This document shows, piece by piece, positions 28,855-38,646 of a stretch of DNA of 64,000 nucleotides; within the stretch, counting starts at the first letter, position 1; the number at the start of each line of letters is the position of its first letter. The notes under the pieces are model-generated. The model was not told the DNA's origin, made no database searches, and saw only the letters and a list, made by a program, of their open reading frames with translations. The position numbers and the translations under genes were made by a program. Source of the stretch: Escherichia phage JK1. Location: the sequence record MZ436830.1; one strand, given 5' to 3'.

Positions 28855-29184
28855 TCAATTAGAAAATAAATTTATCCAAGATTGTTCTTTAATTAAAAAT
28901 GGCTCAGAATCATATGCCATTAAACTTTGGGTAATTAATCCTTTAAAAGGTCCATCAATAAATTCCATGGTAAAATATGGAATTTTATTCATTAGCCGTG
29001 CATTAGGAGCAGTGCACAAAACTCTGCATCCTTTGAATATACCTTTTTGTAATTTGTATTGCTTGGGATAAAATTCGCTCAAAGTGTTATTATTTGCCAA
29101 AATTTCAAAATGATTCACCAATTTATTTTTAATAGTTTTTGGCGAAAAATAAAGATATTCGAAAAGCTGAGTGTCTGTCATCAT
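28855..29184 (-). CDS. Hypothetical protein, translationally coupled to the upstream P-loop ORF
   Basis: Start MMTDTQ at 29184 (ATGATGA overlap with the upstream stop); ORF track 28855..29235. Confidence 0.45.
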
Positions 29185-29771
29185 TGCATTCCAATCACAA
29201 AAAATTGAGGACGAGTAATACCACCAATGCAACATTTACTATTACAGCAGTAGTGTACAGTGTCAATATGGACGCTATAAATCTTATCCATATCAGGAGA
29301 TTTGACAGGCTCATCAATTATATACAAAATTCGCGAAAGCGATAAACCTCTGAACTTACTTCCTTTATTACCAATAAAACTGCGCACAGAATCAGTAAAT
29401 AAACGAAAACGTATATCATCATTAGAATAACGCGAAAATTCCTTTTTAATGTTATTTGCAGAAATTTTAGCGTAAGCTGAAGTATTAGAAAGAACAATAA
29501 CTGTTCCGCCATCATACAGCCAATTAGCAGCAAAGTTAGTCACAGCAATTGATTTACCAGATTGACGTCCACCATCTAGTCGAAGTGTACAATATTCTTT
29601 AAATAAATGCGACGAATCAGGTACATAAAATCCACTATTACAAATTTCTTCTACTCTAGCATCAGAATGGTGTGTAAAAGCATTCATCAGGGATAGATAA
29701 GGACCAGTTAAAAATGTTCTCATTTTATTCTCTCTAAATTTGGGCCATTCCGTGGCGCATGAATTGTCCAT
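29181..29771 (-). CDS. Small P-loop NTPase
   Basis: 196 aa; Walker A LDGGRQSGKS, Walker B-like LYIIDEP. Confidence 0.5.
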   Translation of the reverse strand: MDNSCATEWPKFRENKMRTFLTGPYLSLMNAFTHHSDARVEEICNSGFYVPDSSHLFKEYCTLRLDGGRQSGKSIAVTNFAANWLYDGGTVIVLSNTSAYAKISANNIKKEFSRYSNDDIRFRLFTDSVRSFIGNKGSKFRGLSLSRILYIIDEPVKSPDMDKIYSVHIDTVHYCCNSKCCIGGITRPQFFVIGMQ

Positions 29772-29864
29772 TTCTGTATTTACCCATTACCGCACTCAGG
29801 CTCGACCTTATCACAGGTTGGCGGGAATCCCTCACAGAATCATGAGGTCCAGCTTGTTCCCATA

Positions 29865-30338
29865 TTATTTGAACGATTTAACGTACTGAATAGAACCTTT
29901 ACTATTCACAAAGGCAATTTTACCATTTTTATTATACATGGTAGCAGTACGTTGATAACCATAAGTTTGTTTACCAGATTGATAACCAACTAATGCGAAA
30001 TTATCTTCGCCCATTTTATTCTGTTTAGCGCGAATGCGTTCATGACCATGTGCCATAAGAACCTTAGCATCACCGGTTGCAATGGATCGACGAGTTTTTT
30101 CATCTTCAACTGTATTAACAAAGTCGTCAAATGAATCAAATTTAGCATGAGATTTATTATACAGTTTTCCATCTACTGCATAATTATATCCCTGTACATC
30201 CATCTCAACTTCTGTACCATCATCCAATACAGCAGTGATTTTTTGACCTTTTTTAAATTTCAAAAGATCAGTAAAAGATTCAGCAATAATTTGAGAATTA
30301 ATAGCTGCTTCAGTGATAAATTCTTGATATGTTTTCAT
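29865..30338 (-). CDS. Internal-protein-like ORF with capsid-targeting-sequence (CTS)-like N-terminus
   Basis: 157 aa; N-terminus MKTYQEFITEA matches the T4 internal-protein CTS (MKTYQEFIAE) with an I-x-E protease-type site; immediately downstream of denV. Confidence 0.6.
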   Translation of the reverse strand: MKTYQEFITEAAINSQIIAESFTDLLKFKKGQKITAVLDDGTEVEMDVQGYNYAVDGKLYNKSHAKFDSFDDFVNTVEDEKTRRSIATGDAKVLMAHGHERIRAKQNKMGEDNFALVGYQSGKQTYGYQRTATMYNKNGKIAFVNSKGSIQYVKSFK

Positions 30339-30347
30339 ATGTTTCCT

Positions 30348-30764
30348 TTAAATGTAAATATTTTTACCGTAATACTTATACCAATGTGGTTTCATTAAAA
30401 TTTTTTCATCAAGTCGTTGTTGACTCAATTTAATAGCTGATTTGCATGGATTATAATCATTTTTCCATTCTATTGGAATATCGCTGATGTCAGGAACTTC
30501 AGTATCTTTTATACTGAACCCGCGTTTTAAGCATTCCGTTATAATGTCTAATTGACGCTTTCGCAAAAATTCTAACTTATCGTAAAAGAACGTAACATGA
30601 CCAGAACCTAAAATAAACTCGGAAGATATTTTAAAATCTTTAACGCGCTTACCGTTTGCCACATGCTTACGAACTATACCAAAAACACGTGGCAATTCAC
30701 GATATTCTGCAATTAAATGCTGATCAGTAAGTTCAGATACTAAAGTCAAATTAATACGAGTCAT
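30348..30764 (-). CDS. denV: Endonuclease V (pyrimidine dimer DNA glycosylase)
   Basis: 138 aa; [37 protein letters not shown] matches T4 DenV as I recall it. Confidence 0.9.
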
Positions 30765-30789
30765 TTTATCCCTCCAAGTAACTGTGAAT

Positions 30790-30819
30790 ATACTATCACA
30801 ATTCTAGGAGAAAGTAAAC
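30790..30819 (-). promoter_or_regulatory. Early promoter-like motif upstream of denV (GTTTAC-N18-TAGTAT)
   Basis: Plus gtaaac 30814-30819; weaker -10; occupies the 60-bp denV-e intergenic gap. Confidence 0.4.
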
Positions 30820-30823
30820 AACT

Positions 30824-31792
<969 letters not shown>

Positions 31793-31811
<19 letters not shown>

Positions 31812-38412: not shown

Positions 38413-38646
38413 TTATTTTTTACGAAAAATTGATTTATATTTATCAGCCCATTTCTCAATGACTTTTGCCGGGCCATAGATAACAAAGTAATCGCCAAAC
38501 TCTTCACCACCGAGTTGACCGAAATCATCTAATGCATCACGAAGAACTCCATGAGGCATTTCACCCATTTTATCTTTCTTGCCAGTGTAAATAAACTCAA
38601 CTTTTACATCAGCAGTTTCAGCAATAAATTCTTGATACGTTTTCAT
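38413..38646 (-). CDS. Internal protein with canonical CTS (IPI-like by position, just upstream of 57B)
   Basis: 77 aa from MKTYQEFIAE (exact T4 CTS decapeptide); GGAGAA ribosome-binding site; ORF track extends 6 codons upstream. Confidence 0.65.
   Translation of the reverse strand: MKTYQEFIAETADVKVEFIYTGKKDKMGEMPHGVLRDALDDFGQLGGEEFGDYFVIYGPAKVIEKWADKYKSIFRKK

Follow-up and report, generated by a model that had tools for sequence, protein, structure and literature searches.

The ORF that directly follows denV in Escherichia phage JK1 is, judged by its sequence, not a new gene: it is Ip4, already named and routinely annotated in T-even phages of the T2/RB51 type. We found it in a 64,000-nucleotide stretch of sequence record MZ436830.1, called the window hereafter, and we observed directly its identity, the family to which it belongs, the architecture of its locus and the junctions of the gene cassettes around it. 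It is probable that Ip4 is an interchangeable internal head protein of T-even phages, which would be packaged by its capsid targeting sequence (CTS), processed by gp21 and injected, and that its gene is one cassette of an array. The first-pass annotation of this DNA was correct, but what it found is ordinary: the gene has had its name since the 1990s and is annotated in hundreds of genomes, and the difference in synteny from T4 is already documented in database records.

Identity and distribution of Ip4

The ORF list confirmed the 157-aa minus-strand frame that had been reported, with its coordinates (Table 1) and its N-terminus MKTYQEFITEA. Its start is separated from the stop codon of denV by a gap of 9 nt, in agreement with the proposed placement immediately downstream of this gene, and along the minus-strand transcript the genes follow each other in the order nudE, e, denV, Ip4 and vs.8. 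When we compared the protein with its relatives, we observed 99% identity (156/157) with Ip4 of RB51, the gene annotation of which reads 'Ip4 ... similar to T2, RB70 Ip4', and 100% identity with the copies of T2 and of many further phages. The Ip4 of K3, RB70, wV7 and ime09 is the same protein (99-100% identity; GenBank ACP31045; Q38388; DUF7412; PHROG 3155). The first-pass annotation had held that full-length identity to a known internal protein of T4 would speak against its reading; such identity does exist with Ip4 of T2/RB51, and was found with no protein of T4.

The Pfam family DUF7412 (PF24183) was matched with an E-value of 5.7e-96 and 319 bits for a cutoff of 27, over positions 1-157 of 158, and PHROG 3155, 'internal virion protein', with an E-value of 6e-102 over positions 1-157 of 157. 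The sole fold match in BFVD is UniProt Q38388, 'Ip4 [Enterobacteria phage K3]', with 99% identity and a TM of 0.96. By tblastn, 470 phage records carry Ip4: 310 at 80% identity or more and 160 at 60-80%, the latter including Klebsiella and Salmonella T4-like phages. The identity is at least 99% in 290 records, and the protein is near-invariant across Tequatrovirus. Only the small size of the ORF would speak for a chance open frame that is no real gene, and this reading is refuted by full-length conservation in 468 phage records at 60-100% identity, by the curated Pfam match far above its threshold and by a confident AF2 model; we give it practically no credence.

T4 IPIII was found by tblastn in 261 phage records, fewer than Ip4. 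Since Ip4 is the more widespread of the two, T4 is the atypical case, and the arrangement of T4, not that of phage JK1, is the less common one. The 1.7-kb segment e-denV-Ip4 is present at a coverage of at least 80% in 164 phage records, many of which name the gene Ip4 or ipIV or call its product an internal head protein; Ip4 is annotated at the same position of the locus in RB51, wV7, GiZh, ime09 and many others. The family comprises 14 clusters at 90% identity. An HMM search among 1.84 billion representatives returned just 7 matches, 3 of them distant homologues with 34-36% identity, so that the family is narrow. In the searchable literature (Ip4, ipIV, DUF7412, virion proteomics), no experiment or proteome with Ip4 in heads was reported.

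Table 1. Features of the Ip4 locus and second CTS-type ORF, with positions in the window
Feature	Position	Strand	Basis
vs.8, RB51-type start (MRTFL..)	29181..29723 (frame to 29771)	-	PHROG 1488 (E 3.5e-78); RB51 annotation
Conserved, probably structured RNA directly 3' of Ip4	29775..29868	-	Covariance model, covariation counts
Ip4 CDS (157 aa + stop), candidate internal head protein	29865..30338	-	ORF list, Pfam, PHROG, identity
Codons 11-20, ending I-A-E/S; possible second gp21 site, giving a 20-residue propeptide	30279..30308	-	
CTS MKTYQEFITE, codons 1-10; predicted gp21 cut after E10 (I-T-E/A)	30309..30338	-	
Shared ip leader and RBS AAAAATATTTACATTTAAAGGAAACAT, overlapping the last codons and stop of denV	30339..30368	-	
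denV (endonuclease V, pyrimidine-dimer glycosylase)	30348..30764	-	PHROG 1183 (E 5.9e-62); Pfam Pyr_excise; aligns with T4 denV
e-denV spacer (59 bp), PeSL-type early promoter and stem-loop	30765..30823	-	
e (soluble lysozyme)	30824..31318	-	
Late promoters, perfect TATAAATA motifs upstream of e	31332-31339 and 31345-31352		
nudE	31356..31811	-	
Second CTS ORF (77 aa, MKTYQEFIAET)	38413..38646	-	PHROG 8111 'internal virion protein'

Gene cassettes between e and vs.8

Polymorphism of the region from e to vs.8 is a textbook feature of T-even phages. We ran the synteny comparison of the denV-e interval that had been suggested, and observed that the interval is variable among phages, the layout of the window being that of RB51. 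Among the compared loci, the interval from e to vs.8 shows seven or more distinct gene orders. T4 (NC_000866) has e, ipIII, ipII, denV and then vs.8, which bears out the earlier statement that its ipII and ipIII lie between denV and e. The window, RB51 and locus L015 have e, denV and Ip4, and in RB51-type genomes the whole layout e-denV-Ip4-vs.8 is identical to that of the window. The order is e, denV, a 105-aa ip and Ip4 in teqsoen. Unlike the window, T2 carries Ip4 directly after e, without denV. In Klebsiella Jiaodavirus phages, Ip4, with about 69% identity to that of the window, lies between e and IPIII (KMI12: e, Ip4, IPIII). Other loci read IPIII, ip132, denV, ip99 (L013); e, ip93, ip86, IPIII (L028); denV, ip86, IPIII (L026); and e, ip93, denV (L012). 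Two very short ORFs follow Ip4 in T2 (locus L004 1919-2974).

The ip leader is the same before T4 ipII, T4 ipIII, T2 Ip4 and teqsoen ipX, and the promoter and leader upstream of T2 Ip4 are exactly those of T4 ipIII. In the window, this leader, AAAAATATTTACATTTAAAGGAAACATATG, is fused to the end of denV, the C-terminus of which reads ..NIYI versus ..AIYA in T4. As the last four codons of denV (30348-30362, minus strand) derive from the ip leader, the cassette junction lies inside the coding end of denV. Locus L012 has kept this modified denV end and lacks precisely the Ip4 ORF, the junction lying in a TTYAAA microhomology that the leader has in common with the 3' end of Ip4; such a precise loss shows that the gene is dispensable.

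As the junctions indicate, recombination shuffles the cassettes (ipIII, ipII, denV, Ip4 and other ip genes) where early promoter/stem-loop units are repeated and in the leader and CTS DNA that they share. Similar shuffling was described for the hyperplastic regions of T4-type phages, without specific discussion of the e-to-vs.8 locus (PMC2839356, PMC4122927). As in the published PeSL cassettes (Arbiol et al. 2010; Comeau et al. 2014), the spacer between e and denV places an early promoter and a stable stem-loop at a point where T4, T2 and the window differ in gene content; unlike them, some of the junctions observed here fall outside the PeSL unit, either in the ip leader/CTS or within 6 nt of microhomology.

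Expression signals around denV and Ip4

The gap between denV and e had been put at about 60 bp with an early-promoter-like motif in it; it measures 59 bp, and the motif is a T4-homologous early-type promoter. Over about 52 nt the spacer is near-identical to the stretch of T4 between e and ipIII. Its promoter, GTTTACT-17 nt-TAGTAT, has a -35 box TTTACT (30813-30818), a -10 box TAGTAT (30790-30795) and a TG at -15/-14. The consensus of PeSL promoters in T4/PST is TTTACW-N17-TAYWAT (PMC4122927), to which the spacer promoter conforms at 11 of 12 positions with one mismatch in the -10 box. A generic sigma-70 scan did not flag this promoter because of its score of 8/12, and we accepted it on the basis of T4 homology and of the PeSL consensus.

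The RNA of the spacer (30762-30826, minus strand) was predicted to fold with -18.9 kcal/mol (z = -4.0). In this stem-loop the -10 box is situated in the loop, and the Shine-Dalgarno sequence of denV, GGAGGG (UUGGAGGG), in the stem, where it pairs with sequence upstream of the -10 box. RNA reading through from upstream should therefore mask the denV RBS, whereas RNA started at the spacer promoter should expose it, and the translation of denV may vary with the promoter that made the transcript. The regions upstream of T4 denV and ipII have the same type of fold. The denV Shine-Dalgarno sequence also contains GGAG, the RegB motif; the GGAG of T4 denV is RegB-resistant in vivo.

Between 29700 and 31900, the two motifs before e were the only perfect late promoters upstream of Ip4, with none directly before Ip4. 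Late synthesis of Ip4, as a prohead protein requires, would thus need read-through from the e promoters across denV.

Capsid targeting sequence and predicted processing

The single substitution by which the start of Ip4 had been said to depart from the canonical CTS is A9T, the sole change with respect to T4 IPII and IPIII (MKTYQEFIAEA). It falls at the free X of L/I-X-E, and Y4, F7, I8 and E10 are identical to IPIII. Mutagenesis of the T4 CTS tied targeting to positions 4 and 7 and processing to positions 8 and 10; in T4 IPIII, residues 1-10 suffice for incorporation into the prohead core, and gp21 cleaves after L/I-X-E, the propeptides of the T4 internal proteins having 10-19 residues (PMC9026906). 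With a six-frame motif scan of the 64-kb window that tolerated up to four substitutions, we found the CTS motif only twice, in Ip4 and in ORF 38413..38646; since each time it stands at an ORF start, a chance match is excluded.

The distant homologues with 34-36% identity start with MNFEQFLNES and keep the pattern aromatic-4/F7/(L/I)8/E10, F7 and E10 being nearly invariant even among them. This persistence speaks for selection acting on the peptide, and not for mere shared DNA. It also argues against the view that Ip4 is an early cytoplasmic protein, not packaged, whose CTS-like start is a by-product of recombination through the shared leader and first codons. An early promoter just upstream and no perfect late promoter adjoining the gene would fit such a protein, as would the fact that the leader and the first ~30 nt are DNA common to the ip cassettes and located at junctions. 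However, E20 and a hydrophobic residue at -2 are conserved as well, and ten CTS residues are enough for packaging in T4 (PMC9026906); we consider a cytoplasmic protein very unlikely.

As sequence motifs, [LI]xE sites occur in Ip4 at E10 (I-T-E/A) and E20 (I-A-E/S) and at no other place. E20 is invariant in the close family of 13 members, in which the -2 residue is hydrophobic. The computed mature protein has 16.5 kDa from A11 or 15.5 kDa from S21 and a pI of 9.1-9.3; it is similarly basic to IPII and IPIII, with computed pI of 9.6 and 9.65, respectively. AF2 gave an unusable pLDDT of 50 when only close homologues were supplied, and 83.9 (pTM 0.78) when the three distant homologues were added. 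In such conditions the model has a compact alpha/beta domain after poorly ordered residues 1-20, residues 10-18 being below a pLDDT of 50. From the E10 and E20 motifs and this disorder, we expect the propeptide to have 10 or 20 residues. A PDB profile search with Ip4 gave no match below E 0.6, and the modelled fold is an orphan without informative relative. In the Klebsiella sp. protein P0019 (1879 aa, 'retention module-containing protein'), eight repeated stretches match the profile of the Ip4 family (E 2e-6); the matching part of the profile is positions 36-55, a DDGTEV..V.GYNY beta-hairpin.

From this analysis we infer packaging, cleavage, injection and function of Ip4 as follows. The N-terminal CTS would dock the protein to the scaffolding core of the prohead, and gp21 would remove the propeptide after E10, possibly also after E20. 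The leftover basic protein, of about 15.5-16.5 kDa and with a pI of about 9.2, would stay inside the head and be injected with the DNA. Genes 21 (prohead protease) and 22 (scaffold) lie outside the 64-kb window and are both annotated in the RB51 genome, where the locus is the same, so that their presence in phage JK1 is presumed only from its relatives.

Ip4 and the other internal proteins

With 157 aa, Ip4 has a length unlike that of IPII (100 aa) or IPIII (193 aa), as the first-pass annotation had noticed. Its alignment with IPIII covers residues 1-13 only. By BLASTP, IPII has a weak similarity to Ip4, at 31% across 77 residues with the CTS among them (E 7e-7 for one pair), and the PHROG families of other internal proteins match only residues 1-14, 1-21 or 1-65 of Ip4, with E-values of about 1e-3 to 1e-2. 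According to these alignments, Ip4 has just the CTS in common with IPII and IPIII. The proposal of an internal-protein gene of a different type and at a different position thus holds, as similarity ends after the CTS and the gene is downstream of denV, whereas T4 ipII and ipIII are between e and denV. Ip4 resembles T4 IPII and IPIII in its CTS (MKTYQEFIxEA), in the ip leader/RBS DNA, in the basic mature protein and in its place within the e-to-vs.8 interval; the second LxE site, at E20, is present in Ip4 and absent from both.

No match to mature IPII or IPIII was found in the 64-kb window, and no homologue of either in the complete assembled RB51 genome (tblastn, E > 0.3). Relocation of IPII/IPIII elsewhere in the genome was rejected by these searches of complete RB51 and of the rest of the window. 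Three ORFs have CTS-like starts in the complete RB51 genome: Ip4, Ip5 (at the ipI locus) and the 54-aa gp61.1. With these three and neither IPII nor IPIII, Ip4 appears to replace the two proteins rather than to be added to them, and it would hold their place in the JK1 lineage as a larger basic CTS protein. In RB51-type phages, which lack IPII and IPIII, it is therefore the obvious candidate for the bulk basic internal protein. Gene 61.1 of RB51 (locus L007 17751-17915, minus strand) has a product starting with MKTYKEFIKED, in which D replaces A after E10 of the CTS-like start, and is not annotated as an internal protein.

By analogy, the injected protein may be bulk DNA-associated, may help head assembly like IPIII or may act in counter-defence like IPI*. 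T4 IPI*, an inhibitor of the GmrSD type IV restriction system, has a CTS-type propeptide, is injected with the DNA and belongs to a polymorphic ip locus (PMC9026906). Unlike Ip4, its locus is near 57B, where the window holds the 77-aa CTS ORF of Table 1. The product of this ORF has an acidic to neutral pI of about 5.8-6.5, in contrast to Ip4.

An alternative that differs only in function is that Ip4 is chiefly an injected counter-defence effector directed at one particular host system, in the way IPI* acts on GmrSD. Its gene lies in an accessory array that is hypervariable and polymorphic for gene presence and absence, which is consistent with this, as are its orphan fold and the attribution of internal protein variation to host restriction pressure (PMC9026906; PMC4122927), but an identity of at least 99% in 290 records is not the pattern expected of a fast arms-race interface, and PADLOC models of defence and anti-defence showed no meaningful similarity to Ip4. 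We regard such a specialised role as rather unlikely, though plausible. A further reading would make Ip4, in the large T2/RB51-type lineage without IPII and IPIII, no passive filler but an injected effector with an orphan small-beta-barrel fold that counters a host defence, as IPI* counters GmrSD, with the cut at E20 freeing the active form; separately, the adjacent RNA could be a new phage RNA family. As a whole this seems unlikely to us.

Conserved, probably structured RNA element downstream of Ip4

A GC-rich conserved stretch follows the stop codon of Ip4 (about 29742..29868). It includes an element of ~95-110 nt (Table 1) that, in all variants of the locus, separates vs.8 from the last cassette; further copies are in loci L011-L041 and in T4 (locus L002 3853-3946), where the element follows denV. 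Covariance model R1 matches the element of the window with 58 bits and an E-value of 8e-11. In an exact-pattern scan, the core ACCUGURAUAAGGUCGAGCnnnAGyGCGGUAA was found in 29 IMG/VR loci with four flank types; some of these loci adjoin tRNA genes, and one has an intrinsic terminator after the core. A scan of bacterial genomes with a shorter, 19-nt pattern gave only two matches, one by chance and one partial.

The flanks vary in sequence yet keep pairing. Helix P1 is GGGAA:UUCCC in Tequatrovirus and AAAGG:CCUUU, AAAGC:GCUUU or AAAGA:UCUUU in phages of the JS98/Klebsiella type; it encloses a variable hairpin, from which one phage lacks one whole base pair. Helix P2 closes an invariant core of two small hairpins, with AU, UA, CG, GU or UG as closing pair. 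With MAFFT alone, 13 type-B sequences gave an alignment in which 98% of the cells pair, versus 16-50% in slid controls, and three pairs have compensatory changes. A covariance model built from type B only recovers the other types with E-values of 1e-5 to 1e-12, matching the conserved core alone in three type-C loci. In a model-fitted alignment, which is biased by the fitting, 94.5% of the cells pair and all five pairs of P1 covary; its G:U pairs indicate an RNA of the sense strand. Folding of the single sequence is not unusually stable (z +0.67).

The element is probably a structured RNA, and it matches no family of Rfam 15. It could represent a new phage RNA family, and it could serve as a 3' stabiliser of the cassette transcripts, as a vs.8 leader or as a small RNA. 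The annotation of T4 gives vs.8 219 aa (locus L002 3254-3913) with a start inside this element. A coding role of the element as the N-terminus of vs.8, following that annotation, is unlikely since neither the window nor RB51 nor teqsoen has this frame intact. In the window, the frame of the T4 extension is a separate 33-aa GTG ORF (29734-29835, minus strand) that ends at 29734 and differs from the main frame of vs.8; vs.8 of RB51 starts with MRTFL, at 29723 of the window. The N-terminal extension of T4 vs.8 is probably an annotation artefact or specific to T4. It may be useful to annotators that the cassette array is bounded by an apparently structured RNA which in T4 is buried in the extended vs.8 ORF.

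The product of vs.8, the conserved gene that follows the array, carries the Walker-A-like motif GGRQSGKS and weakly matches the terminase large subunit and HerA. A 2026 preprint described this protein as resembling a terminase ATPase and as toxic upon co-expression with the defence sensor Avs2 (EcAvs2) (bioRxiv 10.64898/2026.04.30.721860). Between the RNA element and the start of vs.8, we also observed a second conserved block (29742-29760, minus strand), AUGYGCCAnGGAAYGGCCC, with a hairpin GCCA-nGGAA-UGGC. It is common to Tequatrovirus and to JS98/Klebsiella-type phages, and its equivalent in type C is GCUGG-GGACGGA-CCAGC.
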